A DNA stretch of 63,174 nucleotides from a virus, in the IMG/VR virus record IMGVR_UViG_3300045988_076310; one strand, 5' to 3'. The notes under the pieces were generated by a model, which worked only from the letters and a program-made list of their open reading frames with translations, did no database searches and was not told where the DNA came from. The translations under genes were made by a program, and so were the position numbers. Shown here piece by piece: positions 7,603 to 34,553 of this stretch (position 1 is its first letter; each line of letters opens with the position of its first letter).

Positions 7603-8391
7603 ATGCAACCTGAATTGGAATTAATTAAAATCACCAATAAGCTTCAAGAGAAGTGTGGTTGCTTTGACTGTGATGATGGAGCAACAATGCAGGGGTACAT
7701 GGAGAGCTTTCTTCGTGTACTCGCTCGCTTGTTCTGTTGGACTGATGGTGAGTGTGCTACTATTCTGAAGAGTAGAAGACATGAAGTTATACCTATCACT
7801 GAGTTTGAACTTTGCGGTTGTGATGCAATGGTTGAGATTAAGCCTTATTACTATAAGGGGTTTGACCCTAATTCACTCAAGGTCTACTTACATAAACGTA
7901 AGGGCTTGGAGAGAGAAGAGTACGAACTTGATACTACAAAGTATAACTGGTCCTTTGTGGATGGAACTTTACTGATTAATGTCACAGATGAACTCAGCCC
8001 TTGCTGTAGGTGTTGTGACCCTTGCTCTTGTGAGGCTCAGTATAAAATCATCTTGGATTATGAAGCAGGATACACCTCTGAAAATCTACCTGATTGTATC
8101 TATGAGGCTATGTGTCACTTCATGAATATCTTCATCTCTTATCAGAATAACTGTGGTTCACTTGATGAGTGTGCTAACATGGATAGATTGGCTGTAGGAG
8201 CTGTGCTTAAGCAGAAATCAGTAGACTATATCGTAAGAGAATGGACTATTGATAATGGAAGCATTGACAGGTTCTACGTTAAGTTAATCAATAAATGGTC
8301 ACTAGCTACACTCAGCTCACTATCACTGTGTAAAAAAGTTTACACAGAAGGGATGCACTTAGCTATTGGGAGAAGAAAAGAATGCAAGTAA
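7603..8391 (+). CDS. Cys-rich head-tail connector candidate
   Basis: AAGGAG RBS. Cys clusters KCGCFDCDDG, ELCGCD and SPCCRCCDPCSCE. Function is inferred from position only. Confidence 0.55.
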   Translation: MQPELELIKITNKLQEKCGCFDCDDGATMQGYMESFLRVLARLFCWTDGECATILKSRRHEVIPITEFELCGCDAMVEIKPYYYKGFDPNSLKVYLHKRKGLEREEYELDTTKYNWSFVDGTLLINVTDELSPCCRCCDPCSCEAQYKIILDYEAGYTSENLPDCIYEAMCHFMNIFISYQNNCGSLDECANMDRLAVGAVLKQKSVDYIVREWTIDNGSIDRFYVKLINKWSLATLSSLSLCKKVYTEGMHLAIGRRKECK

Positions 8392-9740: not shown

Positions 9741-10306
9741 TGAGTGCCCTGTATATAAACATCAAGAAGTGGCTTCAGATGTATGGAGCAGATGTACTAG
9801 ACTATTTTATTCAGCCTGACCATCCTGAAGAGAGAGACCCACGTAAAAGATATAATAACTTTGATGAACAGTTTAATAAACATGTAGGAACTTCTGAGCA
9901 CTTCCAACTTAACCAAGGGGCTGAGTTCCCTTTCCTAGCTATTGATATAGCCTGTGATAATAGTTCTAAGTGTTTCCCAAGGTTCTACATAAATTTCTCC
10001 GTATACTATTCTTCTGTCAGTCCTCCTACTGGAAGGGTCTGTATAGAGAACACCCCTGAGGGAAAACTAGAGTACAGAGAAGAAGTTCATTGTCAAATTA
10101 AAAACATGCTAACTCATCAAGTTAGTACACCTCAGGGGATACAGAGAAAGACTTTCGCTCAAGATGTAGCCTCATTGGAAAATTGGTACTTGCCTATCAA
10201 GGTCAAGATACAGGAAGTTGGATGTCCTGAAGACTTCTCTAATGAGCTTGTGGATGAGGTTGAAATGTTTTCCTTCCCTGTAACCTTATCAATTTATACA
10301 TGTTAG
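9737..10306 (+). CDS. Hypothetical neck/tail protein
   Basis: ATGA overlap with the upstream gene. Confidence 0.6.
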   Translation: MMSALYINIKKWLQMYGADVLDYFIQPDHPEERDPRKRYNNFDEQFNKHVGTSEHFQLNQGAEFPFLAIDIACDNSSKCFPRFYINFSVYYSSVSPPTGRVCIENTPEGKLEYREEVHCQIKNMLTHQVSTPQGIQRKTFAQDVASLENWYLPIKVKIQEVGCPEDFSNELVDEVEMFSFPVTLSIYTC

Positions 10307-14800: not shown

Positions 14801-16630
14801 GAACTCCTTAGAGGTTTCTACAGATCTATTGGAAGCAATGGAGAGTCTAACTTAGCTAACTCAATATCTGCTGTGTCAGGAATTTCTAACCAAACAGGTA
14901 TGAATGCTAAGAACTCTAAGTCATCTATTGGTTTAGCTAATATAAACCCTGACTTTGAGAAACTATCAACATATAATGTTGATATCAATGGTGAGACTAA
15001 GACATGGCAACAATGGAAAGAACAGTTTGGGGTTACTGATGAAGAACTTCTTGCTTCACTTCAGTTGTTCTATGGTTCTATGGGACAAAAGATGTTTGAG
15101 GTTAAGAGTTCCATTGATGGAACAACACAAGAAATTCAGACATTCTCACCAGGTGAACAGAGTAGACAGGGACTAAACACTGAGAGGTTCAAAAATGCTG
15201 TTATGTCTATTTGGGGAGGTTTAGACCAAACCAAGGAATACTTGTATAAGGACCTAAGTGTTTACTCAGAAAGCCTTAAGTCAGCCCTTGATGGTAGTAA
15301 GTTTTCATCTAAGGAAGACCAAGAAACTGCCTTAATTGAAGCTCTTAAGCAAGTAGGTATCTCTGAGGAGTTTCTTAAGGAACAGTCTAGAGGAAATCTT
15401 ATTGACTATGCAACTAAGCTTCAGAAATCAGCAGAAAGCCTAAGTAAGAGCTCACAAGAAGCTAATGCTGATAGGATAGAAAGTATCAACAAACATCTAT
15501 CAAAGGTTCCTACAGAAATTAGGAATATTTTAACAGAATATGTTAAAAATTCTTCACTTGATATAGCAGAAGAGATAGACCAAGTTGCTTATCAGTATAA
15601 AACTATCAAGAAAACTAATGATAGTGCTCATAGAGCAGGTCTAGCTGATAAGTTGGGTGAGCTTGAGAATAAAGTCAATGAAGTAGCCTCAGGTAAGATG
15701 AACGATTTTCTTGAAGGTATCAGAAATAGCTCTAAGAGTGATGATACCAAGAAAGAAAAGTTATCAGGATTTATCTCTAAGATGAAAGGCTTTGATGAAG
15801 AGATTGGTGATATCATTGCTGACCGTATGGTAGAAAAAGGAGAAACCTTTGCTGAAGCTGTGAAGAACTTCCAAAAAGAGAACACTATATCTCCTGAAAA
15901 GCTTGAGAAAACAAAAGCAACTATTACAAACTATACAAATGCTATAGGTAAAATGTTTGCTAATGGTGATATCAAGATTGAAGAAGCTAGTGCCTTACTA
16001 TATGGTATAGACATCTCTAACATAGATACCACAAAACTTGATGCTAAAGGTAAAGCCCTCCTTGAAGAAGTCAAGAAAAAGGTGGATACTACTGATGGAG
16101 CTATCGGTAAGATTAAGTCAGCGGTAGAGAAGAACAACCCAGGAGATGTTGATACCACTAGTATTGAAAATGCTAGTGCTGAAATCAACCAAGCTTTAGC
16201 TTCACTAACAGCTAAAGCTACAGGAGCTATGCAAAGTATTATAGCTAAGATACAATCAGGCTCAGGAAGTATTGCTAACAGAATTGGAAGTAAGAAGTCC
16301 AAACACAAGTTTGCAGGAGGAGCTGTTAAGTACTACTCAGGAGGAAGCTTTGGAGGTGTAGATTTTGTTTCACGTGGAACAGACACAGTGCCAACTATGC
16401 TGACTCCAGGTGAGTATGTACTTCGTAAGAAAGCTGTTGATAGTCTAGGAACTAACTTCTTAGACAAGCTCAACAAGTATGGCTTCAGTGCTTTACAAAA
16501 GGGCACAGGTCAGACTATAATTAATAATGTATATAACAATAACAATGCTCAGATTAGTCAAAATATTGACAATAAGTCTCAGTATTTGAATGGTATGTAT
16601 GGAATTGACAAGTTAATGAGGTATGTTTAA
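11882..16630 (+). CDS. Tail tape measure protein
   Basis: 1582 aa. Has Gly/Ala/Ser-rich hydrophobic segments, E/K coiled coils (EQERELKRQVKKEEEQAKEEQLKAKVEALKEE), and sits upstream of Dit/Tal. Confidence 0.9.
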   Translation: MSVRTIGVKIDGLNDIESASKLLLNMKKTVLDIEKLINKMGKSNSLPFVNIKLRLNTDEIEKQIKSINGLADKARGTGKSPLDDKALKRTSIEVHNVAESYKNLYNVINSVDGAVSKLTSNMIRLGAVNPAKAMLGSFKSISSEVLGIQRSLASMVGGGLKGSLSGIVSGVRTAFRSGLGELNKEANNLGDAMQIYRINMQALGKTEKEINLSMKRLGDYGKASVFDATDLLEQASTFTAYNRADAEEITKAFAGLTAQTKNPVEGMKTITTQMSQMLAAGVLNQGDFRFIREKFSALGASELNRRLTELAKSKGEDTIVDATRKRLISTDEFLDVVKQVGGDPRFQELVTSIVTPRQAIANLKETLSNLLVFDKVDDEGNITPGALNKVYVATREFIKGITEIVGSAKFEEYVRKFGDAVGDLITKFSQVGRVIGMTQGSALLRSMETFGKELSKGFDGKGFVNNIRELSKSVEDFFSTTGISIGKFLGEAGNEYVKFLRSIVDIGKEGVTSGFLDGITEIVKMYRNLADLAVSSGAVRLVSASFSWFFKVVNDVITRGANVSALKQTVNSLGSFVEQLFDSIQFIGTKTNLIPTALGVVKSILNFFTEVMAKTQKGLNPSGVNAGLKKIGQVIDNLLKGLAPIVAELGSGLINALTSSSGVAFFRAIGNFIKAVVEGIKNLFAQLGSGNVEIGMRKVLNTVTTIINVLTSIANVIGANAKIFLIGTILAKVGGIVGKLVTFLGTTINSLNSIRGISPGSIFNRSSQGGSQGGFGGFLPFSKGSSAPKYQLGNRWDLSKQLMSNSYASYQLAYAQTGSRWQGLKAGVQSTKGYAKMFSQQASGAMKSFGKGALMLGGMFSGMIFDGVNGLVQNSNMSPILKKGSTVLTSTASSALMGASMGTFFGPVGTAIGAGIGGLLGVASGLFTTAQEEQLAEQERELKRQVKKEEEQAKEEQLKAKVEALKEEGRSYTELLRGFYRSIGSNGESNLANSISAVSGISNQTGMNAKNSKSSIGLANINPDFEKLSTYNVDINGETKTWQQWKEQFGVTDEELLASLQLFYGSMGQKMFEVKSSIDGTTQEIQTFSPGEQSRQGLNTERFKNAVMSIWGGLDQTKEYLYKDLSVYSESLKSALDGSKFSSKEDQETALIEALKQVGISEEFLKEQSRGNLIDYATKLQKSAESLSKSSQEANADRIESINKHLSKVPTEIRNILTEYVKNSSLDIAEEIDQVAYQYKTIKKTNDSAHRAGLADKLGELENKVNEVASGKMNDFLEGIRNSSKSDDTKKEKLSGFISKMKGFDEEIGDIIADRMVEKGETFAEAVKNFQKENTISPEKLEKTKATITNYTNAIGKMFANGDIKIEEASALLYGIDISNIDTTKLDAKGKALLEEVKKKVDTTDGAIGKIKSAVEKNNPGDVDTTSIENASAEINQALASLTAKATGAMQSIIAKIQSGSGSIANRIGSKKSKHKFAGGAVKYYSGGSFGGVDFVSRGTDTVPTMLTPGEYVLRKKAVDSLGTNFLDKLNKYGFSALQKGTGQTIINNVYNNNNAQISQNIDNKSQYLNGMYGIDKLMRYV

Positions 16631-17739
16631 TGTTTAGATGTGATGAAAACTTTTCAAAACCTAAACGATATATCCAATATAATGACCTTGTGTTCCTTGG
16701 TAGAAAGTCTATTGATGAACAGTCAGAAAGTATTAGTCTGAGAGAGAGTAAAACCTCTCGGACTTTTACTCATGGCTCTTATGTTGGTAATCAGAGTGAT
16801 AAGTCACTGATAGAAAGTAACTCTATCTCACTGAAGGTTGCCCTTAGAACCCAAGACTGGTCTGAGGAGCATGTTCAGGCTCACTATGACTTTATCATTG
16901 AACAACTAACTACACCAGGTAAGCTGTGGGCTATTCAAACAGGTCTACAGCTTGTGTGGTGTAATGCTTATGTTACTAGTATTCAATCAGCTAAGGAGTG
17001 GGTAATCACAGATGATGACTACCTAGTATTCAAAGTTGAACTAGATAACCCTGATGGTGTTTGGTATAAGGCAGATGAGGCTAAGACCTATCTAGAGCCC
17101 TATGATAACTGTGACTTTATTGAGATGAAGGCTAGTTGCTTAGGTAAGTCTAGAGCTTGCTGTAACACTCTACCTAACTGTGATAATCACTGTGAATGTT
17201 GTGAGACAGATTGTGGTGAGATGGATGGTATGGTAGACCTATGTACTGCTCAGACTAATGTCCAGTTTATGAATGACTTCTATGAAGAGTGTAACTCTAA
17301 ATGGAGAGTAGTATATAACTGTTCTAGATGCAAACAGGATGGAAAACAGCTTAAGGACCTCTACAAACATGCTATCTGTGATACATGTGTAAATGAGGTT
17401 ATGACAGGTGACTTCCTATCAACTACTGTTCTAGATAGTCACAGATGGAGTTTTGCTCTTGAAGGTGACTTTAAGGACCCTATTGTAAGGCTAAATGATA
17501 GAGATTTTAAGATTTTAGGTACCTACAGTGGAGTACTCACAGCAGATTATAAGGGTAACGTTAAATATGCTAAGTCTTGGGAGTGTTTAGAGTTCAGTTA
17601 TAATGAGGTGTCTCTTGATGCCTTAAGATTGTGTGCTGAGATGCCTTATGTTAAGAAAGGTCTAAATACTATTTCTGTGAGTGGTGTTGTGAGTGAGAGT
17701 GCTTGTATCTACTTGGATTATGAGAGTGTAACTATATGA
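16630..17739 (+). CDS. Distal tail protein (Dit) candidate with a Cys-rich insertion
   Basis: First gene after the TMP (ATG overlaps the stop). A 93-aa segment (17110..17388) contains 15 Cys. Confidence 0.55.
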   Translation: MFRCDENFSKPKRYIQYNDLVFLGRKSIDEQSESISLRESKTSRTFTHGSYVGNQSDKSLIESNSISLKVALRTQDWSEEHVQAHYDFIIEQLTTPGKLWAIQTGLQLVWCNAYVTSIQSAKEWVITDDDYLVFKVELDNPDGVWYKADEAKTYLEPYDNCDFIEMKASCLGKSRACCNTLPNCDNHCECCETDCGEMDGMVDLCTAQTNVQFMNDFYEECNSKWRVVYNCSRCKQDGKQLKDLYKHAICDTCVNEVMTGDFLSTTVLDSHRWSFALEGDFKDPIVRLNDRDFKILGTYSGVLTADYKGNVKYAKSWECLEFSYNEVSLDALRLCAEMPYVKKGLNTISVSGVVSESACIYLDYESVTI

Positions 17740-23293: not shown

Positions 23294-23635
23294 ATGGATA
23301 GACTAATCTTAAGAATTGTGGAAAACCAAGCTGTCATCTCAGGAATAACACTCTTTGTAACCTCAGCTTGTGGTGTAGGGGTAGCTTGGCTTAACCACAA
23401 GAGAAATCAGCTTGTAGAGCTCTCAAAGGGTGCTAAACGCTCTAGCTTACGCTCTGAGTATCTTAACATCTACAACTCAACTGAGTTTACTTGGCAAGAG
23501 AAGTGGGATATGACTGAGCCTCTTGTGAAGGAATACTTTAATGAACTTAATGGAAACCATTATATACATGGTTTAAACGAGAAGATGAGAAGACATGTAG
23601 AGGAGGAGATTGCCAATGGTAAAGGTAACAGTTGA
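23294..23635 (+). CDS. Membrane protein (one N-terminal TM segment)
   Basis: Hydrophobic stretch AVISGITLFVTSACGVGVAWL; AGGAG RBS. Confidence 0.55.
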   Translation: MDRLILRIVENQAVISGITLFVTSACGVGVAWLNHKRNQLVELSKGAKRSSLRSEYLNIYNSTEFTWQEKWDMTEPLVKEYFNELNGNHYIHGLNEKMRRHVEEEIANGKGNS

Positions 23636-24938
23636 TGCAAGCTGTTTAAAGGGTCTAGGTGGTGGAGGAGCTACCTATGATGACACAGAAGTAATTAACC
23701 GTATCAAAGCCCTTGAAGGAAGAACAGATAACTTTGTAAAAGAAGTCACTGTGTCTAGAGAAGGGAATAAGGTAAAATTGACTTACACTAGAGTTGATGG
23801 TACATCTAGTGAAGTAGAATTTGATGATAAAGATACTATTTCTATTGCTTATGATGACACTGCTCTTAAAGAAAGAGTAACTGCATTAGAGGCAAAAGAA
23901 GATAAAGACACTGTGTATGATGACACAGAAGTAAAAAATCGACTAACTACTCTTGAAGAGAAGGTTGATAATGACACTATTTATGATGATAGTGCATTAA
24001 AAGCTAGAGTCGAAGCATTGGAAGCTAAACCTGATAAGGATGAACAAACATTATCATTAACTGGTAATGAGCTATCAATTTCTAATGGAAACTCTGTGAC
24101 ACTTCCTGAAGCAACACCTTATAATGATAAGCCTCTAGTAGATAGAATTGCTGTCTTAGAAGCTAGGGAAGACAAAGATACCATCTATGATGATAGTGAC
24201 TTAAAAGAGCAAGTAAATGACTTAGGAAGCTCTATGGCTAGTGCTTTACATGACATTAGTGAGATTAGGGTTAATAATGAGTCAAGACTTAGTGCTCTAG
24301 AAAAGAAAGAAGACAATGATAAGCAAACATTGTCTTTAGAAGGTAATACCTTAAGCATCTCTAATGGTAATTCAGTAGAGCTTCCAGTAAGTGCAGGAAA
24401 AGAATTTGTTGTTACTAGTGATACTGAAGGTGTTACAGTAACTAAAGCTGAAGCAGAAGGCTCCACTACTTACAATGTAAACATGGATAATGCTTTAGAT
24501 AAGTTCTACAAGAAAGCTGAGACTTACACTAAGAATGAAGTAGATAATCTACTAACCAAACAGGAAGATAAAGCTACTGACATTACAGTGTATAGAGGTA
24601 CTTTCACTGATAGAGAGAAGGTTCAAGAAGGTACTTATGACACAGATGTATCTCCTAGAATAACACTTACTTACTCTAGTAGCACAGGTGTAGGTATTCT
24701 GAAAGTAGACTTTAAAATCCTTAAGGCTGTTGGTCAAGGAAATGTTATTGCTAAATTACCTAAAGGTGCACCTAGACCTGCTGAGCTTATTGAGGCTCAA
24801 GTATGGGTAGGAGATGTTTCTACATCTATTTGGGTAGATAAGGGAGCTGATGTAGTTAGAATGTATGCTACAAGTGATGCCAATATCTTTAACAAACGTA
24901 TCATCCTAAACATCCCAGGTATCTTTAAGAAATCTTAA
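23616..24938 (+). CDS. Tail fibre with coiled-coil repeats
   Basis: ATG 23616 sits 7 nt after GAGGAGGAG. At least six repeats of about 22 aa, YDD(T/S)xLKxRVxxLEAKxDKDT. Two copies of DKQTLSLxGNxLSISNGNSVxLP. Confidence 0.7.
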   Translation: MVKVTVDASCLKGLGGGGATYDDTEVINRIKALEGRTDNFVKEVTVSREGNKVKLTYTRVDGTSSEVEFDDKDTISIAYDDTALKERVTALEAKEDKDTVYDDTEVKNRLTTLEEKVDNDTIYDDSALKARVEALEAKPDKDEQTLSLTGNELSISNGNSVTLPEATPYNDKPLVDRIAVLEAREDKDTIYDDSDLKEQVNDLGSSMASALHDISEIRVNNESRLSALEKKEDNDKQTLSLEGNTLSISNGNSVELPVSAGKEFVVTSDTEGVTVTKAEAEGSTTYNVNMDNALDKFYKKAETYTKNEVDNLLTKQEDKATDITVYRGTFTDREKVQEGTYDTDVSPRITLTYSSSTGVGILKVDFKILKAVGQGNVIAKLPKGAPRPAELIEAQVWVGDVSTSIWVDKGADVVRMYATSDANIFNKRIILNIPGIFKKS

Positions 24939-25174: not shown

Positions 25175-27423
25175 ACTATCAAGAATTTAAGAAGAAATGG
25201 TATAATAAGGGTGTAGATGTAGACGGTTACTATTCCTTCCAATGTTGGGACTCCTTTGCACAGTGGTGTAAGGAAAATGGTGTCCCTGTAATCAATACAA
25301 CACCTGTGTCACAAGGTGGCTCAGGTTATGCCAAAGACTTGTGGGAGAAGAAAGCCTCTAATGGTATCCTCAAGTACTTTGATGAAGTACCTATCAATCA
25401 GCTCAAAGAAGGTGATGTAGGTGTCTTCAAAGAGGTGCAAGGATGGACTCCTGTATCTCATGTGGCAATGTTTGATAGAGATATTGATGGTAAGTATGGC
25501 TACTTCTTAAGCCAAAACCAAGGTGGAATTAATGGAGTACACAATCTATGTAGGTTCCCTTATTCTGCACTATACCCTACAGCCTTTAGATTAAAGAAGG
25601 CTAACAATAACCAAGGAGGAAGTAAGACTGTGGCATTACCAGTTAAGAATATTGGTGGAGAAATCTTCTCAGGAGTTATTACAGGATATGATGCTAATAT
25701 CATGAACTGTGATAGCAATAGAAATAAGATTGACAGAATTGTTATTCACCATAACGCTACAACTAATGATGCTGTGGCTAGAAGTACATGGTATGTATCT
25801 TCAGGTCATGGTACTTCAGCTCACTATCAAGTAACACCTGATAAAATTTGGGGTTGTGTTGGTGAGAACTATGTTGCTTATCATGCAGGAAACTATCCAG
25901 TAAATCAACGCTCTATTGGTATTGAGCACTTAAACAACACAGGAGCTCCTACATGGACTATTGCTGAGGAAACTTATAGAAACTCAGCTAGACTAATTAG
26001 AGATATTTGTGAACGCTATAATATTCCTATTGACAGACAGCACATCATCAAGCATGGTGAAGTATCATCTACAGCGTGTTTACCTGTTGATAATACTGAA
26101 CTCCTCACTAAACAAGGTTGGGTAAGCTTAAAAGATATCCAAGTAGGTGATGAGATTGCTACATACAGATTAGATGATGGAAGCATTATCTTTGACACTG
26201 TGTATAATAAAGTAGAGCCTCACATTAAAGATACTTGGTTCTTTAGAGATGTTGAGGTAACTGCTGACCATAGAATGTTGTGGAAGTCTCAAGCAAGTAA
26301 AACCTATAAGATTAGTGAAGCTAAGGATATGTTCTCTAACAAAGGTACTCTAGTATTCCCAAATGCAGGAAACTATGAAGCAGAAGGACTCCCTGTGTCA
26401 GATACTTTCCTACAGTATCTTGTAGCTGTACAAGCTGATGGTCATTATATGAAGGATAATAGAACCATTAACAAAAACCCTTTTGGTATTGAGTTCCACA
26501 TTAAAAAGGATAGAAAAGTAGAATTACTTACTGATATCCTTGATGAGTTGGGGAAAGAATATACATTTAGAGAGAAAAAAGATGGTACTTATTCATTCCG
26601 TATTTATGGAGCTGAAGAGGTTGAAGAAGTAGAGCAATATCTAGACAATAAAAAATTCTCATGGAAGTTCCTTGAGATGTCAGAAAGACAAGCTGAACTC
26701 TTCCTTGACTATATCTTAGACTTTGATGGTTGTAGAGCAGGTAATGATTACTCTTCAACACTCTCTCAAAATATAGATGTGGTACAAGCTATTGCTTCTC
26801 TCCATAATAAAGGTAGTAGAACATCTACAGAAGGTAATCGACTATACTTTACAAACCCTACTAGAAGTGTAACATCTACTGGTACTTTAGCTAAGTCTGC
26901 ACAAAGAAGACAACAAAGGCTGGTTTCATGTGTATCTGTTACATCAGGTTTAATCTTAATCCGTCAACATGGAAGAACTACTGTTGTAGGTAACTGTCCT
27001 GGTGGTATTGACATTGATAGACTTGTAGCTATGGCTAAAGGTGCTGATTATGTTACTCCTGCTAAGGCTACTCCTAGACCATCTGCACCAGGTAAGATGC
27101 AACATGCTTATCGAGTAGATGACTTGAAATTTGTGAATGGTTTGTGGCAGGTTTACTGTCAAGAACTTGCTCCTGCTGAGTTTAACTGGACTGATAATGG
27201 TATTGCTGTAGAGGATATCATTATTACTAATAAAGATGGTGCTAGACTTCCTGACCAAATGACTCATGTAGGTGACTACTTTGTGTTTGACCAAACTGCT
27301 ACAGCCGATACAGGCTATGGAGCTATGGGTTCAGGCGGATGGTATTGGAGAAAATTCAGACTGAGAACTTCAGGTGAAATTTGGTTATCAGCTTGGAACT
27401 TAAACCACTTATTGTTTGGTTAA
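25171..27423 (+). CDS. Endolysin: CHAP + amidase_2 (interrupted by an intein) + SH3b-like wall-binding domain
   Basis: CHAP: YYSFQCWDSF and VSHVAMF. Amidase_2: IVIHHNATTN, SAHYQV, AYHAGN, IGIEH, and H-x7-C restored across the intein as KHGEVSSTA|CPGG. The C-terminal VNGLWQV...DNGIAVEDI...WYWRKF region is SH3b-like. Confidence 0.9.
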   Translation: MNYQEFKKKWYNKGVDVDGYYSFQCWDSFAQWCKENGVPVINTTPVSQGGSGYAKDLWEKKASNGILKYFDEVPINQLKEGDVGVFKEVQGWTPVSHVAMFDRDIDGKYGYFLSQNQGGINGVHNLCRFPYSALYPTAFRLKKANNNQGGSKTVALPVKNIGGEIFSGVITGYDANIMNCDSNRNKIDRIVIHHNATTNDAVARSTWYVSSGHGTSAHYQVTPDKIWGCVGENYVAYHAGNYPVNQRSIGIEHLNNTGAPTWTIAEETYRNSARLIRDICERYNIPIDRQHIIKHGEVSSTACLPVDNTELLTKQGWVSLKDIQVGDEIATYRLDDGSIIFDTVYNKVEPHIKDTWFFRDVEVTADHRMLWKSQASKTYKISEAKDMFSNKGTLVFPNAGNYEAEGLPVSDTFLQYLVAVQADGHYMKDNRTINKNPFGIEFHIKKDRKVELLTDILDELGKEYTFREKKDGTYSFRIYGAEEVEEVEQYLDNKKFSWKFLEMSERQAELFLDYILDFDGCRAGNDYSSTLSQNIDVVQAIASLHNKGSRTSTEGNRLYFTNPTRSVTSTGTLAKSAQRRQQRLVSCVSVTSGLILIRQHGRTTVVGNCPGGIDIDRLVAMAKGADYVTPAKATPRPSAPGKMQHAYRVDDLKFVNGLWQVYCQELAPAEFNWTDNGIAVEDIIITNKDGARLPDQMTHVGDYFVFDQTATADTGYGAMGSGGWYWRKFRLRTSGEIWLSAWNLNHLLFG
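26077..26994 (+). mobile_element. Intein with LAGLIDADG homing-endonuclease domain (306 aa) inside the endolysin
   Basis: Begins with Cys1 (CLPVDNTELLTKQGWVSLKDIQVGDEI). Block B is TADH. Two LAGLIDADG-type motifs, YLVAVQADGHY and LDYILDFDGC. Ends ...TTVVGN followed by the +1 Cys of CPGG. Confidence 0.85.
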
Positions 27424-27424
27424 G

Positions 27425-27457
27425 GGGATGGGGTTAATCCCCTCCCTATTTTTATTT
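27425..27457 (+). terminator. Rho-independent terminator after the endolysin
   Basis: GC-rich hairpin GGGATGGGG-ttaat-CCCCTCCC followed by TATTTTTATTT. Confidence 0.6.
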
Positions 27458-27466
27458 GGAGGAACT

Positions 27467-28342
27467 ATGGAAGATATCTGTAAACACAAGGATTGCTCCT
27501 GTGAGAACGTAGGCTTGGGGGATTGTGTTAAACTACAAGAACTAAATGACCTACAAATTAGACCAAAGATGAGGGCTATTCTTAAGGCTGAGTGGTGTAA
27601 CTTACCTGAAGCTATTAGAAGAGCTTTCTATGGTGTTTGGTGTGTATTAAAGAATATTATTAACCAATTATGTTATATTCTATCTAAGCTTGAGTGCTTA
27701 GAGGCTAAAGTATCCAATCTGTGTGAAGTTGCTAAGTGTCAGGATGAAAGAATTTCAGGGCTTATTGACCACATCAAAGGTAAAATGCTTGAGAATGTAT
27801 CCTTTAGTATGAAGTCTAGTGGTTCTAATGTAGACTATAATGGTCAACAGACTTACACTAAGATTAGTACACAAAATGATGGTTCATTTACATTGACTTG
27901 GAACATGGTTGATGAGAATGAAGTAGGTAAGGGTACTATTACTGGTAAAGTTGCTCACATGTACACCATGAAAGATGATGGTACTATTGATGCACATATT
28001 AGTAGAGTAACTTTCAATGCTATTAACTATACTGCATCACCAGGAGCTAGAAGCTATGGAACTACTGCAAGATACTCTATCATTGATAACAATGGTAAAG
28101 AGATTTTCGGAAGAGACTATGACCCAGGTTTCAGCTTCTCAGACAAGTCACCTGACCTATCAGTAGGAAAATCAGTTACACTACAGCCTCAAGGAGGTAA
28201 CACAGGAGATGTTCTTCTGTTTAGAACTGTGGACTATTGGGTTAATGCTTCCACTACTGGTGAAGTAAGAGCAGACTATGTAAATAATAACTCTCCTCTT
28301 CCTAAGGCACAAGGATGTGTCATTGACTGTGACAACTGTTAG
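27467..28342 (+). CDS. Cys-rich N-terminal module protein 1 (fibre/RBP-like)
   Basis: ATG 27467 follows GGAGG; the ORF track starts it at 27416, inside the terminator. N-terminus reads CKHKDCSCENVGLGDC...WCNL...VWCVLKNIINQLCYIL...C...C...C. C-terminus ends CVIDCDNC. Confidence 0.65.
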   Translation: MEDICKHKDCSCENVGLGDCVKLQELNDLQIRPKMRAILKAEWCNLPEAIRRAFYGVWCVLKNIINQLCYILSKLECLEAKVSNLCEVAKCQDERISGLIDHIKGKMLENVSFSMKSSGSNVDYNGQQTYTKISTQNDGSFTLTWNMVDENEVGKGTITGKVAHMYTMKDDGTIDAHISRVTFNAINYTASPGARSYGTTARYSIIDNNGKEIFGRDYDPGFSFSDKSPDLSVGKSVTLQPQGGNTGDVLLFRTVDYWVNASTTGEVRADYVNNNSPLPKAQGCVIDCDNC

Positions 28343-28350
28343 GAGGTAAC

Positions 28351-29595
28351 ATGCTAGATTACTGCCCTAATTGCAGATGTAAAATAAAGTTCTACAAAGC
28401 TCATGAATGTGATAAGATGAAGCATGAGCTTGCTGATAGTATTAAACTAGCAGGTGATGTTATTGCATCCAGTGATGAGTGTAAACTCAAGGAGAATACC
28501 ACACATGGTATCTTTCGTATATGGTGTGTGATTAAGAACATTATTGAGATTATCTGTGATATAATTAAACGTATGAAGTGCTTACAGCGTAAGGCTCAGA
28601 GAGTATGTGAAGCTCAGCACTGTATTGATAGAAGGGTTGCAGAAGTCAATAGGATTATTGGTGTTTACAACTCTGACCAAGAGAGTCTTCCTTCAACTGA
28701 GCAAGCTGATTGGGAAGCTCTTAAGCTAAGAACTGACCGTGAGTATGCTAATGCTCTATCATTGTATAAGGCTAGAAAGAAAGTCTATGATGATAAGGTA
28801 AAAGAATATGATGTGAAGCTTATCCAGTATAACACTATGAAGGCTGAGTATGAAAGACTCAAGCGTGAATATGATGCAGGGCAAGGAGCTCAACAAGGTA
28901 GTCAAGGTCAGTGGCAAGAGGCTTGGGGAAGTTTTGCTAAGACAGGAGTACCTTATGATATTGTCATGGGTGGTTCTCCTAACCCCTCAATTCATGGATT
29001 AGACCTTACTGAAGCTCATAGACATAACTTTGGTAGAGGTGTGTTCTTTAGGAGTCTTAATGATGCAGGAACTTCTGTGGAGATGAAATTAAACCTTATT
29101 GGTTATACCTATGAGGGTAATGGAAGAGCTGTTCCAGGAGGCTATTATGTCCAGTATGGAGGTACCTATGACTGGTATCTAGACTACTACATCTCAACAG
29201 ATGGAGGTAACACCTATCATCCTGTGGAGTCTAATATCCTCTTAGCTAGACATGCTGATACACAGAACCTAGCCTATGGTCCTAACTGGCATCTATCAAG
29301 AATTGATTGGGTCAAACAGATTACACTACCTGCTAACTTCACTCACCTTAAGACTGAGGTACGTGGAGATAATCCAGGTGAACGACATCAAAATGTCTAC
29401 ACAAGAGAGCAGATTGTGAGAAAACCTTTCCCTCCATTCACAGAAAAAGAGCCTAAAAGACCTGAACCCTTCACAGAAAAGGAACCTAAGAAGTCACCAT
29501 TACCTCCTAAGCCTGAGAAGAAGGTTGAAAACATTCCTCTCATTGGTAGTGGATGTGACCTTATGGACTGTAAGTTTGACTGCTTTATAGATTAG
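28351..29595 (+). CDS. Cys-rich N-terminal module protein 2 (fibre/RBP-like)
   Basis: CPNCRCKIKFYKAHEC...IWCVIKNIIEIICDII...C...C...C, then coiled coil, a duplicated FTEKEPK(R/K) motif, and a CDLMDCKFDC end. Confidence 0.65.
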   Translation: MLDYCPNCRCKIKFYKAHECDKMKHELADSIKLAGDVIASSDECKLKENTTHGIFRIWCVIKNIIEIICDIIKRMKCLQRKAQRVCEAQHCIDRRVAEVNRIIGVYNSDQESLPSTEQADWEALKLRTDREYANALSLYKARKKVYDDKVKEYDVKLIQYNTMKAEYERLKREYDAGQGAQQGSQGQWQEAWGSFAKTGVPYDIVMGGSPNPSIHGLDLTEAHRHNFGRGVFFRSLNDAGTSVEMKLNLIGYTYEGNGRAVPGGYYVQYGGTYDWYLDYYISTDGGNTYHPVESNILLARHADTQNLAYGPNWHLSRIDWVKQITLPANFTHLKTEVRGDNPGERHQNVYTREQIVRKPFPPFTEKEPKRPEPFTEKEPKKSPLPPKPEKKVENIPLIGSGCDLMDCKFDCFID

Positions 29596-29603
29596 GAGAA
29601 ACT

Positions 29604-30158
29604 ATGACAGATTGTATTAATTGTCAGTGTGAGGAGATTGTAGTAGGCAAGTCAGCCTGTGCATCTCTTAAAAAACAGAATGATGATAGAATTAAGCTAC
29701 ATTCCCTCGTACTGAGGGATACTACACTGTGTGACCTGCCTGAGGAAGCTTCAAAGGCTATTTATTCACAGTGGTGCTTTAACAAGAACATCACCAATCA
29801 ACTGTGTTGGTTGATGAACAATAGCTCAGGTGGTAAAGAATACAAGGCAGGTAAGGATATTAGTATCTCTAGTGATGGTACTATCTCATTCACAGGTGCT
29901 ATTCCTAAGCCTACTGAACCTTATAATGATGCTAACCTAAGAGCTGAGAATGAAAAGCTTAAGAAGGCACTTAACAAGATTATCAATAACCTAACTGCTA
30001 GTGGTGCTTGGACTGGTGGTTTAGATGGTGACTTTGTACCTAACAGAAATATCGCTACAGGTAACATTAACCTCTTTGGAGGTACACCTGACGGAGATGC
30101 CTTCATCCGTACTAATAACGGTAGAACTGAAAACGACTTAGCAGGAGGAGTGAACTAA
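29604..30158 (+). CDS. Cys-rich N-terminal module protein 3, with shared C-terminal module
   Basis: CINCQCEEIVVGKSAC...QWCFNKNITNQLCWL. The C-terminal SGAW...NIATGNINLFGGTPDGDAFIRTNNGRTENDLAGGVN matches the C-terminus of 31419..32495. Confidence 0.65.
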   Translation: MTDCINCQCEEIVVGKSACASLKKQNDDRIKLHSLVLRDTTLCDLPEEASKAIYSQWCFNKNITNQLCWLMNNSSGGKEYKAGKDISISSDGTISFTGAIPKPTEPYNDANLRAENEKLKKALNKIINNLTASGAWTGGLDGDFVPNRNIATGNINLFGGTPDGDAFIRTNNGRTENDLAGGVN

Positions 30159-31426
30159 TGGGATGCTATACTTGTGGGGGAAACCCTAATACTTGGTGCA
30201 CTAAGTGTATGCCTGCTGAGGACACTTGGGTAGCACCTGTGGATAGTTTACCTGATGTATTCATGGGAGATAGGGACCACATGTACCTTCTCCCTAATGG
30301 TGACTTATTCATCCTTTCTCCTGATAGAACTAGATGGATTAAAGTAAATGGTACGGGTAACGCTACAGCCTATGATGATGCTGAGCTTAAAAAGAGATTA
30401 ACAGCATTAGAGGCTAAGCCTGATAAAGATACTATTACCACAATTAGACAAGGTGAAAGAGTAACTGTTACTAAGGATGGTAACGATTACACTATCTCAG
30501 GAAACCCTATCAGAACTGTGAATACTACAGCAGATGATAAGGAACCTCTTGTGACCCTAACTCCTAATGCTTCAGGAGATACACTTACCCTTAACTCTTC
30601 TAGACTAGCTCAGGAGATTGCTAAGGTTCAAGGTAAAACTGATAATTTTGTATCAGGAGTTGGTGTATCAAGAGAAGGTAACAAAGTCAAGCTGACATAC
30701 ACCTTTGTGGATGGTACAAGTAAAGAGGTTGAGTTTGAAGACAAGGACACAGTTGCTTTAGCCTATGATGATACAGCACTGAAGGCTAGAGTAAGTGAAC
30801 TTGAAAAGGTTAAGTATAGAGATAAAGACACTACTGTGTACCCTTATACTATAGGAGAAATAGTAACTTTAGGTAAAGGTAATAGGGTTAGACAAAATGA
30901 GTATAAAACCTATACATACAAGATTACAAGCTCTAATAAACCTTTAACTGAACCCTTTATAGAGAATATCTTACAGTTTGACTTTCAGTTATATGAAAAG
31001 AATAGTATAACTGGTGAAACTTATGGTAGACCTGGTACTAACTTTAGTATTACTAAGGTTGCTAGACAATTTGAGGAATTATACACTGAGCAAACCTATG
31101 CTCTAACAAATAATACATCTCTTCTAGTGAAGCTAAATACTATATGGAAGGATACAGATAATAAATTCACTGTTGAGCTTGGACTAGCCCTTATTTATAA
31201 GGAGCAAGAAGGTGACTTTGTAAGAGAGTACAGACATGACTTCACTGCTGATGAGATTGACTCAGGAGAACAAGCTCATATTTCTGTGCAAGTAGATGGT
31301 GTAGAGAAAGGTTACTCTAAGCTTACCCTGAGAAATGTGGCTGTAGGCATGTCTAACTTTGGTTATAGGGTCTATAAACAAGTAGGTGATGGTGCTTATA
31401 CTAAATTGGAGACTATAAATGAGTAA
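30158..31426 (+). CDS. Fibre-like protein sharing a module with 23616..24938
   Basis: N-terminus CYTCGGNPNTWCTKC. The segment TDNFVSGVGVSREGNKVKLTYTFVDGTSKEVEFEDKDTVALAYDDTALKARV parallels TDNFVKEVTVSREGNKVKLTYTRVDGTSSEVEFDDKDTISIAYDDTALKERV in the fibre. Confidence 0.65.
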   Translation: MGCYTCGGNPNTWCTKCMPAEDTWVAPVDSLPDVFMGDRDHMYLLPNGDLFILSPDRTRWIKVNGTGNATAYDDAELKKRLTALEAKPDKDTITTIRQGERVTVTKDGNDYTISGNPIRTVNTTADDKEPLVTLTPNASGDTLTLNSSRLAQEIAKVQGKTDNFVSGVGVSREGNKVKLTYTFVDGTSKEVEFEDKDTVALAYDDTALKARVSELEKVKYRDKDTTVYPYTIGEIVTLGKGNRVRQNEYKTYTYKITSSNKPLTEPFIENILQFDFQLYEKNSITGETYGRPGTNFSITKVARQFEELYTEQTYALTNNTSLLVKLNTIWKDTDNKFTVELGLALIYKEQEGDFVREYRHDFTADEIDSGEQAHISVQVDGVEKGYSKLTLRNVAVGMSNFGYRVYKQVGDGAYTKLETINE

Positions 31427-32495
31427 AACAATATATAACAAGACTACACAGACAACTACACCTTCGGTTACAGCTTATGATGATGCTCCTATTAAGGCTA
31501 GGCTTACAACTTTAGAGAATAAGCCTGACAATGATAAGCAAACTCTAACTTTTACTGAAGGTAATAGAAACCTATCTATCAGTAATGGTAACACAGTGAC
31601 ACTCCCTGATTATCTTAAGAAGGATGAGGCTTACTCATTGTTCCCTACTTACCCTAAGCTTCAGGATGAGATGACTAAGACTATCAAGGACAAGCATGTT
31701 GACTTAGGTCTTGATAAGCTTATTGAGGATAAGCTTCAGAATGGTAGAAACCCTTATGTTACTAAGGCAGATGTTCCTGCATTATCAGGAGCTAACTTCT
31801 TTGTGACTAAGGGAGATATTCCAGGAACTAAAGCTACCACAATAAATAAGGATACAGTATATAATGCTGATACTATAAAAGTTGGTGATACTGTGAGGGA
31901 TAGGTTCCTTGAACGTACTACAGGTATCTTAGAATATGGGTACTGGAAGGTAACTGCTGTAACTGACAGTACTGTATCCGTAGAGCCTCTAGGTACAGAA
32001 AGAGATATCACTATTGGACCTACTAATCAGACACTAACTTTATCAGGTAGAACCTTATCTATTTCTGGTGGTAACTCAGTTACACTTCCTAACAATGCTA
32101 CACCTTATGATGATACAGCTTTAAGAAATAGAGTCACAGCTCTAGAGAATAAAGAAGATAGAGACAAACAGACACTAAGCCTTAGTGGTAACACTCTATC
32201 AATCTCTAATGGTAATAGTGTCAATCTTCCTCAGTATGTGTCACTCCAAGACTTCAACAATCTTAAGAATGAGTACAACCAACTCAAGGGTGCTTTCACA
32301 GCTCTTCTCCAAAACCTTAAGAACTCAGGAGCTTGGAACCAAACAGGAGGAACTATCTTTGAAGGTTCTCTAAGACCTGATAGAAACATTGCTACTGGTA
32401 ATATCAACTTGTTTGGTGGAACTGTGGATGGTAATGCGTTTATCAGAACTAATAATGGTAAGACTGAGAATGACCTTGCAGGAGGTATTAGTTAA
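31419..32495 (+). CDS. Fibre-like protein (coiled-coil repeats + shared C-terminal module)
   Basis: YDDxxxKxRxTxLENKxDxDKQTL repeats and three (R/N)xLSISxGNxVxLP motifs. The C-terminus SGAW...NIATGNINLFGGTVDGNAFIRTNNGKTENDLAGGIS is shared with 29604..30158. Confidence 0.65.
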   Translation: MSKTIYNKTTQTTTPSVTAYDDAPIKARLTTLENKPDNDKQTLTFTEGNRNLSISNGNTVTLPDYLKKDEAYSLFPTYPKLQDEMTKTIKDKHVDLGLDKLIEDKLQNGRNPYVTKADVPALSGANFFVTKGDIPGTKATTINKDTVYNADTIKVGDTVRDRFLERTTGILEYGYWKVTAVTDSTVSVEPLGTERDITIGPTNQTLTLSGRTLSISGGNSVTLPNNATPYDDTALRNRVTALENKEDRDKQTLSLSGNTLSISNGNSVNLPQYVSLQDFNNLKNEYNQLKGAFTALLQNLKNSGAWNQTGGTIFEGSLRPDRNIATGNINLFGGTVDGNAFIRTNNGKTENDLAGGIS

Positions 32496-33679
32496 TGGCT
32501 GACCAAACAACACTTAACTATGAGCAAATTGCCAAGGTTAGAAGTGTCTTAAGTCTAAACATCTACTCACAAGATAGTGGTACTCGTACATACATCAATG
32601 GTAATAGTTTTAGGGTAGAAACCCCTATGACTATTCCTATTGATGGAGTAGAGACTGCTATCGGTCATGTGAACATTGAAGGTAATATCTTCTATGACCT
32701 GACTGTTGAAGGAACTAGAGTTAAGGCTAAGAATACCAAGGCTAGAATTAATCAAATCTACTATAGAAGGGTTCCTGATACGTATGCTTTCAGTGACTCA
32801 GGAGCTAACTATAGAGTACACACTGCTGTGGGGGATATCTTTAATAAAGACTATGACCCCGCAGGTGGTGATTGGACTGAGACAGTCAACAGAACCTTCA
32901 ACATTGAGGATGTTGAAATTTCTTCTAAAGTAAACGAGCAGGTTAAATATGTAATGTCTACCTTTGATAGGTGGCAATACAACCCTACAGAAAGTAGAGT
33001 TACCTTCTCTCTGACTGTTCCTGACCAAAGTATACTTAACGTACCTCAGGCTCCTAAGGAAGCCAATGTGACAATCAAGTATATTGATAAGTCCACAGGA
33101 AGACCTCTCAGAAATAATGATGTATTAACTAAACAGACTATTGGTTCATACATCACTAGAAATGCTCCTAATATTAACGGTTATGTTCCTGAAAGAAGTT
33201 CACTAAGTCTAGTAGTTAGAGAAGGCACTAATGAGATGACCTTCTACTATGACCCTGCAAAGGCTAATGTTGTTATTGAATATAAGAACAGGGCTAATGG
33301 AGCTACACTAAGACCTTCTGAAACTAGAACTAACCAAAGAGTAGGAAGCACTGTGACAGTAAATGCTCCTGCTATTAAGAACTTTGCTCCTGAGAAAGCT
33401 GTGTATACTCACACAGTTGTCAATGGAGAGAATAAGATTATTGTGTACTACACTGAGGATGCTAAGATTAGACCGTGGGCTATCAGAAAGTCTAACTCAT
33501 GGAAGTCTCTTAACACTACTAGACAGTGGATGAAGATTAGAAGAACAGCTAATCAGAACTATTGGGATACTAAGTCTAATGCTGAAATTTATGCCTCAGA
33601 TGTCAATAAGGAAAACTTCTCTGCCTCACGTATTCGTAAAGGTGGTAAGTGGAAAGCACAAGGAAAGATAGGTAACTAA
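32495..33679 (+). CDS. Adhesin-like protein with two MucBP-type repeats
   Basis: ANVTIKYIDKSTGRPL...IGSYITRNAPNINGYVP...GTNEMTFYYDP and ANVVIEYKNRANGATL...VGSTVTVNAPAIKNFAP...GENKIIVYYTE fit the MucBP pattern (VxVxYxDxxGxxL...G..Y...IxGY...VxFxY). Confidence 0.6.
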   Translation: MADQTTLNYEQIAKVRSVLSLNIYSQDSGTRTYINGNSFRVETPMTIPIDGVETAIGHVNIEGNIFYDLTVEGTRVKAKNTKARINQIYYRRVPDTYAFSDSGANYRVHTAVGDIFNKDYDPAGGDWTETVNRTFNIEDVEISSKVNEQVKYVMSTFDRWQYNPTESRVTFSLTVPDQSILNVPQAPKEANVTIKYIDKSTGRPLRNNDVLTKQTIGSYITRNAPNINGYVPERSSLSLVVREGTNEMTFYYDPAKANVVIEYKNRANGATLRPSETRTNQRVGSTVTVNAPAIKNFAPEKAVYTHTVVNGENKIIVYYTEDAKIRPWAIRKSNSWKSLNTTRQWMKIRRTANQNYWDTKSNAEIYASDVNKENFSASRIRKGGKWKAQGKIGN

Positions 33680-34527
33680 TGGCTATTGATGATAAAACAA
33701 CTAAACTGAATGAAGCATCATTCACAAGTTATACTGAGAACCCTCATGACCGCTGTTGGTATGATGAGTGTGATTGTGATGATATCCCTATTGCTGACTG
33801 TCAGCGGTTGATTGATGAGAATAATAAGGGTGTTGGAAGGTTCGCATGTATGGCTGAAGGTCAGAAGTGCTACAATCCTAAATTCTTCAGTTCATTCATT
33901 AAGAAGCTTGCCTGTCAGCTCAATCACTACATCCAAAACATCTGTGCCTTGTGGGATATGGTTCAATGTATGGGTGAGTATCTAGCTAAACTTGGAGATG
34001 TAGGTACAGTTCATACAAACTATGCTCGTAACTCTGCTGTGTCATCTGATACATTCTATCACCCTATCACAGATGGTTATGACCTAGACCTCTACATGGA
34101 CTCTACTACAGGGGTTGTAGCAGGTGAGTCAGATGATAAGCGTAGAAAGCAAACTGACAGAAAGTATCGTGTATATATCAGATGGTGTGCTGATGGTACT
34201 TCTCTAAACCCTGCTCAGGATAACACTATGGAGTTTGTAGTTTACCACTCAGGTGAACAGTACACTGAAGACCTTAAGAAAAATAGAGGTGTTCACTGGC
34301 AGATGACAGGTGTATCAGATGGAGCTATGGAAATGTCTGACACAATCATTGTACCTGCTGGACAGCACATTAAACTACGTGTAGAGCCTGCTAACTCATC
34401 TCAAGGTACTTTTCGTGTACACCAGTTTAAAGTTGAGTATACTCCTATCATGGACAGTCAAGAGCTTCCTGAATGTCTTAAATTCACTGAGCTTCCTAAG
34501 GATGACTGTAACTGTGATGATAAATAA
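33679..34527 (+). CDS. Cys-rich N-terminal module protein 4 (fibre/RBP-like)
   Basis: RCWYDECDCDDIPIADC...C...KLACQLNHYIQNICALWDMVQC; ends DDCNCDDK. Last gene of the rightward arm. Confidence 0.6.
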   Translation: MAIDDKTTKLNEASFTSYTENPHDRCWYDECDCDDIPIADCQRLIDENNKGVGRFACMAEGQKCYNPKFFSSFIKKLACQLNHYIQNICALWDMVQCMGEYLAKLGDVGTVHTNYARNSAVSSDTFYHPITDGYDLDLYMDSTTGVVAGESDDKRRKQTDRKYRVYIRWCADGTSLNPAQDNTMEFVVYHSGEQYTEDLKKNRGVHWQMTGVSDGAMEMSDTIIVPAGQHIKLRVEPANSSQGTFRVHQFKVEYTPIMDSQELPECLKFTELPKDDCNCDDK

Positions 34528-34553
34528 AAAAGGGACCCTAGTGGTCCTTTTTG
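34526..34553. terminator. Bidirectional rho-independent terminator at the convergence of the two arms
   Basis: AAAAAA-GGGACC-ctagt-GGTCCT-TTTT lies between the + gene ending at 34527 and the - gene ending at 34554. Confidence 0.75.

Follow-up and report, generated by a model that had tools for sequence, protein, structure and literature searches.

We analysed a cluster of seven genes that closes the late arm of a phage genome, the IMG/VR virus record IMGVR_UViG_3300045988_076310, whose whole stretch of 63,174 nucleotides is called the window throughout. The window is an essentially complete genome of ~63 kb from an uncultured, siphovirus-like phage, in which late genes run along the plus strand from position 18 to 34527 and converge on early genes read from the minus strand from 34554. 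A preliminary description made from the sequence alone had placed seven tightly coupled genes of fibre- or adhesin-like character after the holin and endolysin genes. All seven are found as plus-strand open reading frames (ORFs), with intergenic gaps of 8, 8, -1, -8, -1 and -1 nt and GGAGG-like ribosome-binding sites at most of the starts (Table 1, where genes are named by position). The terminator hairpin reported after the endolysin is also there in terminator-like form, and on its own it proves little because eight such sites occur in the region where 6.2 +/- 2.3 are expected by chance. No convincing promoter was found after this hairpin, and the cluster is therefore probably transcribed by read-through of the late operon.

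Table 1. Genes and hairpins discussed in the text, in window numbering (aa, amino acids)
Feature	Position	Strand	Description
Head-tail adaptor	7603..8391	+	19 Cys; phrog_16343, head-tail adaptor, 6e-34
Dit-like hub protein	16630..17739	+	20 Cys, most of them within an insertion (aa 161-253); homologous to P087 gp74 and to the AM6 'distal tail protein'
g23616, fibre gene upstream of holin	23610..24938	+	Repeat modules in common with g30158 and g31419
Terminator-like hairpin and T run	27423..27453 (hairpin 27423-27443)	+	7-pair stem; 43-nt gap from endolysin stop to g27467
g27467, 291 aa, slot 1	27467..28342	+	Cys7 module aa 1-76; BspA-type V domain aa 110-275
g28351, 414 aa, slot 2	28351..29595	+	Cys7 module aa 1-76; C77, C86, C91; long helix
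g29604, 184 aa, slot 3	29604..30158	+	Cys7 module aa 1-73, without clasp Cys; Cp-1/Cp-7 ORF16-type C-terminus aa ~109-184
g30158, 422 aa	30158..31426	+	CxxC-x7-CxxC N-terminus and P087 gp81-like domain; coiled-coil repeats; unique C-terminal domain
g31419, 358 aa	31419..32495	+	Repeat and LSISNGNSV modules as in g23616; C-terminal module aa 276-358
g32495, 394 aa	32495..33679	+	N-terminal domain; two MucBP stretches from aa 191; C-terminal PWAIRK...RIRKGGKW..QGKIG aa 319-394
g33679, 282 aa, last slot	33679..34527	+	Divergent Cys module aa 23-97; C-terminal C266, C277, C279
Terminator-like hairpin	34533..34547	-	Cluster end, between convergent late (+) and early (-) blocks

Four of the seven products carry a related Cys-rich segment at or near the N-terminus, here called the Cys7 module. 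BLASTP comparisons of the modules join g27467 with g29604 (6e-12), g27467 with g28351 (2e-9), g28351 with g29604 (7e-8) and g27467 with g33679 (1.7e-5), the g33679 copy being the most divergent of the four and starting at about aa 23. The preliminary description had proposed this module and had named beforehand the loss of the similarity in a proper multiple alignment as a reason to abandon it; in the four-way alignment the similarity persists, with seven Cys and one Asp invariant. The core, of ~76 aa, reads C-x2-4-C-x-C-x7-9-C ... N-D-x2-I-K ... C-(D)-L-P ... W-C-x2-K-N-I-I-x3-C. Cys residues, including those of the helical extension that follows, stand at positions 5, 10, 12, 20, 44, 59, 69, 77, 86 and 91 of g27467 and at 5, 8, 10, 20, 44, 59, 69, 77, 86 and 91 of g28351, the two being ~30% identical. 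Against a Cys background of 1.36% of the proteome, the probability of at least seven Cys in 70 aa is ~5e-5. A family hidden Markov model (HMM) matches all four window proteins (4e-15 to 3e-27) and no other ORF of the window.

The module is rare outside the window. When 1.84 billion representative proteins were searched exhaustively with an HMM, only 63 module representatives came up; one candidate from that search, P0062, was rejected as a low-complexity repeat artefact. The module profile retrieved only 10 short proteins from a word-indexed database. There was no match in Pfam, PHROGs, NCBIfam or the PDB sequences, no similarity to the metal-binding domains of Pfam or the PDB, and no relative in 185,579 bacterial and archaeal genomes; the uncultured homologues in UniProt bear automatic names only. 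Judged from these comparisons, the Cys7 module is a genuine shared domain that was previously uncatalogued. Its placement is internal or C-terminal in some relatives (P0009, P0056, P0060 and P0080), P0009 having it at the C-terminal end, behind the head. Two full-length monomer runs of AlphaFold2 (AF2) drew the module as a helical hairpin at low confidence (31-63 on the predicted local distance difference test, pLDDT), which would fit a need for partners or cofactors, though the input alignments were shallow (21-26 sequences).

Cys clusters at the C-terminus of three of the four module proteins had been described as features in their own right. The clusters are present (CVIDCDNC, CDLMDCKFDC and C..CNC), bringing the total to 13 Cys per protein in three slots, and they co-vary with the Cys of the helix that follows the module. 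When Cys were counted family-wide in the 32 aa past the seventh module Cys (C7) and in the last 22 aa, the two numbers were 0:0 in 28 proteins, 2:2 in 6 and 3:3 in 26; in g27467, for example, C77, C86 and C91 of the helix extension are paired in number with C284, C288 and C291 at the C-terminus. Since proteins with BspA_v heads and proteins with GbpC heads each include 2:2 and 3:3 patterns, the Cys count has changed more than once. Natural proteins of 114-189 aa that lack a head have kept the module together with both sets of Cys, on the helix and in the tail. We infer from this pattern that the C-terminal clusters are not independent and would form a clasp with the post-module helix Cys, either within one chain or between subunits. 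Headless variants include P0026, P0034, P0072, P0098-P0101 and a gene in locus L059 (10001-10363), P0026 also retaining the helix and Pro-rich segments in shortened form.

The spacing of the Cys fits the geometry of an antiparallel ladder. In g27467, 18 residues separate C91 from the head (~27 Å as helix) and 11 residues lead from the head to the first tail Cys (~34 Å if extended). The corresponding segments of g28351 are 97 helical residues (~145 Å) and 49 Pro-rich residues (~152 Å as polyproline-II, PPII). In this protein the AF2 model places a beta-sandwich head at aa 184-352, followed by a Pro-rich return (aa 353-400) and the cluster C402, C407 and C411; Tyr residues recur at exact heptads (132, 139 ... 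174) in a helix of pLDDT above 90, and a 48-residue segment with 12 Pro is modelled at pLDDT 75-93 without regular secondary structure. Helix and Pro-rich lengths in 44 distinct slot-2 proteins fall at (112,46), (119,49-50) and (125-126,53), a slope of 0.52 where 0.48 is expected from rises of 1.5 Å per residue for alpha-helix and 3.1 Å for PPII. The two segments of g28351 thus fit an alpha/PPII hairpin stalk like that of antigen I/II (AgI/II). Such an alpha/PPII architecture was reportedly described for the AgI/II A/P stalk by Larson and colleagues in 2010. No window protein matched the Pfam A- or P-repeat, and a weak Adhesin_P1_N match was found only in the relative P0009. Given the low pLDDT of the module and of the C-terminal cluster, clasp and hairpin rest on covariation and geometry and not on the model.

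Several of the heads are adhesin domains. That of g27467 matches Pfam BspA_v (1e-11, 45.3 bits against a cut-off of 25) and the V domain of BspA in the PDB (5DZ8, 2e-14), with pLDDT 85-97. Family-wide, BspA_v heads make up 8/44 and GbpC heads 6/44; in P0037, P0038, P0046, P0055 and P0085 an SspB/GbpC-type V domain sits in the same scaffold (Pfam GbpC up to 3.5e-37), and aa 136-427 of P0037 align with the SspB V region (2WD6) at 1e-30, A and P flanks included. MucBP is found in two stretches of g32495 (Pfam 1.9e-8, 35.4 bits against a cut-off of 23). For the head of g28351, a Foldseek comparison of the model with the PDB gave generic beta-sandwich matches only, all with E>1e-3, a PDB sequence search with the g28351-family profile gave nothing significant, and a Foldseek comparison with BFVD gave only uncultured homologues automatically named 'Glucan-binding protein C' or 'Adhesin protein'. 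In hhalign against the GbpC-head proteins only the module aligned, and no match of this head to a V domain was obtained. Proteins of 236-386 aa with an ORF17-type (PWAIRK) end have the g28351 head as their N-terminal domain, at 45-53% identity, and one of them is encoded directly upstream of the holin in locus L005. A weak similarity of this head to the N-terminal domain of EF62phi_0043 (0.015) is not relied on.

The phage proteins thus resemble the AgI/II family (SpaP/P1, SspB, BspA and GbpC) in having a BspA-type V domain in g27467, SspB/GbpC-type V domains in relatives and, in g28351, a proposed stalk of Tyr-heptad helix and Pro-rich return with co-varying lengths and the head at its tip. 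They differ in being much shorter, in coming from lytic phages with no counterpart in the bacterial genomes searched, and in lacking a signal peptide, an LPxTG motif and the C1-C3 isopeptide domains, for which no Pfam match was obtained in any of the seven. The base of P1 is held by an N-terminal/C-terminal 'lock', whereas the phage stalk would be closed by the Cys7 module and the Cys clasp. All seven cluster proteins have polar N-termini with at most 12 hydrophobic residues per 19-aa window and none has LPxTG, which argues against secreted adhesins. A search of the accessible literature for AgI/II, GbpC or BspA-like proteins in phages returned no description. New here, then, are the module domain, the proposed Cys-clasped hairpin presentation and the occurrence of AgI/II-type and MucBP adhesin domains in lytic phages; a common N-terminal anchor among tandem fibre genes is itself a known design.

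The other modules of the cluster lead to virion proteins. The preliminary description had linked the non-Cys7 genes to the fibre gene upstream of the holin, and BLASTP bears this out for g30158 (55% identity to g23616 over 101 aa, 4e-25, including coiled-coil repeats of the form YDD..LK.R...LE) and for g31419 (69% over 48 aa, 1e-15); in relatives, the last gene before the holin retains the C-terminal domain of g23616. The final ~80 aa of g31419 share ~60% identity with the C-terminus of ORF16, annotated 'Appendage', in Cp-1, Cp-7 and SOCP; they also match a 'tail fiber protein' in further streptococcal podophages, and the identities to these appendage and tail-fibre C-termini span 50-64%. Over their last 106 aa, g29604 and g31419 have 51% identity (BLASTP, 2e-26), a relationship overlooked in the preliminary description, and it is through this identity that g29604 is tied to the appendage match, which was obtained with g31419. 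The C-terminal ~70 aa of g32495 match ORF17 of Cp-7, also an 'Appendage' (7e-8), and EF62phi_0043. The window thus shares with Cp-1, Cp-7, SOCP and EF62phi an ORF16-type module (SGAW..NIATGNINLFGG..TENDLAGG, in g29604 and g31419) and an ORF17-type module (PWAIRK..RIRKxGxW..QGKIG, in g32495; ORF16/ORF17 correspond to 0042/0043 in EF62phi), and the ORF16-type gene precedes the ORF17-type gene in the podophages as in the window. The window phage, however, is a ~60-kb siphophage and not phi29-like, and the N-terminal attachment regions differ, g29604 having the Cys7 module there. Searches of phages by tblastn with g27467, g30158 and g33679 gave no match, and PDB sequence searches with g33679, g32495 and g30158 gave nothing significant; aa 111-262 of g33679 form a conserved domain to which no fold was assigned.

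A further link runs to the Lactococcus P087 group (Teubervirus), which on the evidence of TerL, Dit-like and Tal-like proteins (25-27% identical) comprises the nearest cultured relatives of the window phage, though distant ones. In P087 and AM6, three genes after the endolysin (gp86-gp88 in P087) are annotated as virion structural, one as a putative neck-passage structure. P087 gp79, encoded upstream of the holins between the 'tail protein' gp78 and the structural protein gp80, carries the module in degenerate form (HMM 17.7 bits; hhalign 1.3e-4) and shares a C-terminal domain with family member P0079 (phmmer 3.4e-14). The N-termini of gp78 and gp80 look module-like by eye at non-significant scores (hhalign 0.012 and 0.89) and are not relied on. 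The CxxC-x7-CxxC N-terminus of g30158, which the preliminary description had missed and which is unlike the Cys7 module, is accompanied by a domain that matches P087 gp81 (7.6e-10) and may be a second type of N-terminal anchor; this pair (window 30158-30442) is present in all relatives. P087 differs from the window in that gp79 lacks C4, C7 and the clasp, its module gene lies upstream of the lysis genes, gp86-88 have no sequence similarity to the window genes, and AgI/II, MucBP and Cp-1-type modules are absent.

We compared the cluster with 81 related IMG/VR and metagenome loci, slot counts being taken over 86 sources. At least 80 module loci in IMG/VR all lie on viral contigs of ~50-65 kb. 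Module genes are present in 81/81 loci, at three to four per locus wherever the contig end leaves the cluster whole, and their slot order is fixed: slot 1 combines the module with BspA_v, or is headless, or is a 747-aa double adhesin; slot 2 combines it with variable head types or is headless; slot 3 has the ORF16-type C-terminus; g30158-type, ORF16-type and PWAIRK-type genes follow; and the last slot joins the module to the C-terminal domain of g33679. The g33679-type slot is the most widely found (73 proteins). Modules are better conserved than heads (65% versus 41% in slot 1; 43% versus ~25% in slot 2), and within a slot they are 43-90% identical across phages, as against 18-36% between paralogs of one genome. 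The preliminary description had pictured a swappable set of receptor-binding proteins (RBPs) on one common adaptor. The swapping is borne out, since related phages have heads exchanged or deleted at the module boundaries. The common socket is not: slot-specific modules in a fixed order argue that each of the four proteins has a conserved position or partner of its own and that the fibres are not interchangeable.

These loci also alter the view of the position after the lysis genes, which had been called unusual. It is a lineage trait, since structural genes of the P087 group follow the endolysin, gp79 is a module protein, and in some relatives no endolysin intervenes: in L045, L051 and L059 the fibre gene and slot 1 have nothing between them but a holin-like gene of 67 aa (~9790-10001). 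The cluster is best read, from gene order, as part of the tail/fibre morphogenesis block into which lysis genes have been inserted at variable points. In L045, L051 and L059 the endolysin is either encoded elsewhere or replaced in that role by another CHAP/lysozyme protein.

Taken together, these data suggest that the seven genes encode virion-borne fibre or adhesin components of a siphophage lineage that probably infects Streptococcus and is distantly related to P087, a reading to which we assign a probability of about 0.58. The fibre- or adhesin-like character proposed in the preliminary description has gained in substance through the BspA-V and MucBP domains, the podophage appendage modules and the modules shared with the upstream fibre. 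In the arrangement that we propose, four proteins would be built on one scaffold, in which an N-terminal Cys7 module of ~76 aa is continued by a long alpha-helix. A variable head would be carried at the distal end of the helix in slots 1, 2 and last, and the chain would return along the helix, in g28351 as a PPII segment packed on the Tyr-heptad helix in the manner of the AgI/II A/P stalks. The C-terminal Cys cluster would then meet the post-module helix Cys, closing the hairpin by a disulfide ladder or a shared metal site. The Cys7 module may oligomerise or may dock each subunit at its own virion position, and the heads (BspA-V, SspB/GbpC-type V in relatives and MucBP in g32495) would bind glycans or glycoproteins of the host or its niche. 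Among the remaining proteins, a fibre C-terminus of ORF16 type would be partnered by a tip protein of PWAIRK type, as in the Cp-7 genes annotated as appendages.

Several observations weigh against this reading. All seven products are known from their genes alone and are putative virion components; a terminator-like hairpin stands between the endolysin and the cluster; and P087 gp79 is annotated merely as hypothetical. As for the scaffold, the AF2 monomers give module and C-terminal cluster low confidence, the helix/Pro-rich covariation comes from three length classes only and so from at least two insertion or deletion events, and the Cys counts are mismatched in the P0059 lineage (2:3) and the g33679 type (1:3), the other exceptions being mostly fragments. 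In addition, the head of g28351 has no detectable relation to AgI/II V domains.

The alternatives differ in where the proteins would act and in what the Cys would do. Virion-borne heads might bind the habitat rather than the host cell (putative targets are glycoproteins of the salivary pellicle, gp340 for example, mucin or plaque glucan) and so concentrate the phage near streptococci, as in bacteriophage adherence to mucus (BAM). BspA, SspB/GbpC and MucBP proteins bind host glycoproteins, glucan or mucus. All three head types come from Gram-positive surface-adhesin families, the loss of heads with retention of the scaffold is what accessory binders would lead one to expect, and a separate conventional fibre lies upstream of the holin; neck-passage structures, moreover, may carry carbohydrate-binding modules that aid adsorption (review, PMC9863714). 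Gram-positive phages, however, routinely recruit lectin-like domains for cell-wall polysaccharide, and we regard niche homing as possible but unlikely. Moron-like soluble adhesins, made late and freed at lysis, with an action on nearby cells or surfaces such as is reported for PblA/PblB of phage SM1, or else on the infected cell itself, would suit the host-type adhesin domains, the location past the endolysin with a terminator-like hairpin in between, and the small non-structural-looking genes, DUF1642 included, that precede the module genes in L001. Such cargo nevertheless seems improbable to us, since no homologue was found in the 185,579 bacterial genomes and the genes are thus not prophage-borne, signal peptide and LPxTG are lacking, and modules recur in proteins whose annotation is that of virion appendages or fibres. 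The fixed, translationally coupled slot order in 81 loci, the structural annotation of post-endolysin genes in the P087 group and the relatives in which the cluster adjoins a fibre gene and a small holin-like gene also argue for the virion.

A different role for the module itself would be that of a Zn or Fe-S metal cluster or a redox switch, serving for example fibre deployment outside the reducing cytoplasm, while attachment would be left to other regions. The Fe-S cluster of lambda gpL is a precedent. Seven invariant Cys and the 13 Cys per protein in three slots would be in keeping with it, as would the inability of AlphaFold to fold the module without cofactors or partners and the Cys-rich nature of other junction proteins (the adaptor and the Dit-like protein). 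An internal or C-terminal module, as found in P0009, P0056, P0060 and P0080, suits a general interaction or oligomerisation module instead, and headless module-plus-clasp proteins have been retained, so that we hold the metal or redox role to be rather remote. A bolder combination, which we consider doubtful, is that lytic streptococcal phages captured the AgI/II and MucBP tips of their hosts and show them on a Cys-clasped alpha/PPII scaffold for homing to the salivary-pellicle, mucin or glucan surfaces that the bacteria also seek, the modules of the four subunits assembling with the Cys-rich Dit-like protein or the adaptor via metal clusters or post-lysis disulfides.

The preferred reading of virion-borne fibre components has parallels elsewhere. 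In multi-RBP branched fibres (the tailspikes of CBA120, G7C and PhiK64-1), tandem RBPs likewise share a short conserved N-terminal domain and carry exchangeable distal domains. Those phages infect Gram-negative hosts, and their adaptor folds, T4 gp10-like or other, lack Cys clusters; moreover, the modules of the window are slot-specific, and a closed hairpin instead of a free C-terminal end would carry the distal domains. Cys-rich or metal-containing elements also occur at tail assembly junctions, such as the [4Fe-4S] cluster of lambda gpL and the metal ions of T4 fibres, and the module has no sequence similarity to either. Speculatively, the Dit-like protein or the head-tail adaptor is a candidate acceptor of the Cys modules. 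The Dit-like protein has 19-20 Cys in full-length copies of related phages and just 9 in P087 gp74. The adaptor (262 aa, with the motifs CGCFDCDD and CCRCCDPCSCE) is the most Cys-rich protein of the phage, Cys-richness being a mark of several of its virion junction proteins.

The cluster defines an undescribed domain and a closed-hairpin presentation of heads on what are most likely phage fibres, and it is a clear case of adhesin domains being exchanged between lytic phages and the surface proteins of streptococci. Many human-associated metagenomes (Human Microbiome Project-type IMG/VR identifiers) contain this phage group, which has no cultured member. Should the heads bind salivary or plaque components, they would provide a concrete case of phage adherence to the mouth niche. 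If clasp and module mediate assembly, they would offer a compact modular scaffold for head swapping, host-range engineering or display, for which the headless and head-swapped variants already existing in nature would be useful. A metal- or redox-dependent docking principle, if true, would be one undescribed for phage fibres.

Several features point to Streptococcus as the probable host: the holin is of Dp-1 type, the endolysin combines Amidase_2 with a ZoocinA target-recognition domain, the best lysin matches are Streptococcus prophages (45-51%), and modules are held in common with phages of S. pneumoniae, S. mitis and Enterococcus. The lineage is most likely lytic. An origin by prophage carriage or lysogenic conversion was rejected, as the GTDB genome scan (185,579 bacterial and archaeal genomes) returned 0 relatives. 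Megablast of the cluster against GenBank phages gave zero nucleotide matches, and IMG/VR locus searches with the single proteins P0037 and P0056 found nothing.

Some of the compared loci depart further from the window. L070, L072 and L075 (8750-13201) form a more distant subgroup of ~63-64 kb with three unusual genes, encoding P0080 (747 aa, two adhesin units around an internal Cys module), a module-only protein of 165 aa with 13 Cys and a 573-aa protein with 19 Cys in which no module was detected. L005 (13133-21158), which holds the g28351-head/PWAIRK protein before its holin, is a different phage type with large genes after the endolysin, one of them with Trypsin, Caud_tail_N and phi29_gp9_C matches. 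In the more distant L001 (1-1300), the small genes before the module genes, DUF1642 among them, are not lysis genes.

Two genes upstream of the cluster also drew our attention. The endolysin (750 aa) contains an intein-like insertion of 306 aa (aa 302-607, window 26074-26991) that begins CLPVDN and finishes VVGN/C (the slash marking the boundary); the orthologues in L003 and L004, of 446-447 aa, lack this insertion, which resembles segments of Staphylococcus phage genomes and intein-bearing PHROG families. The product of g21821 (window 21821-23284) has a low-complexity linker of ~100 aa rich in Pro, Glu and Thr (PTPKPTPQPEPTPEEPKP...), followed by apparent repeated domains, and in relatives its length ranges from 109 to 490 aa.

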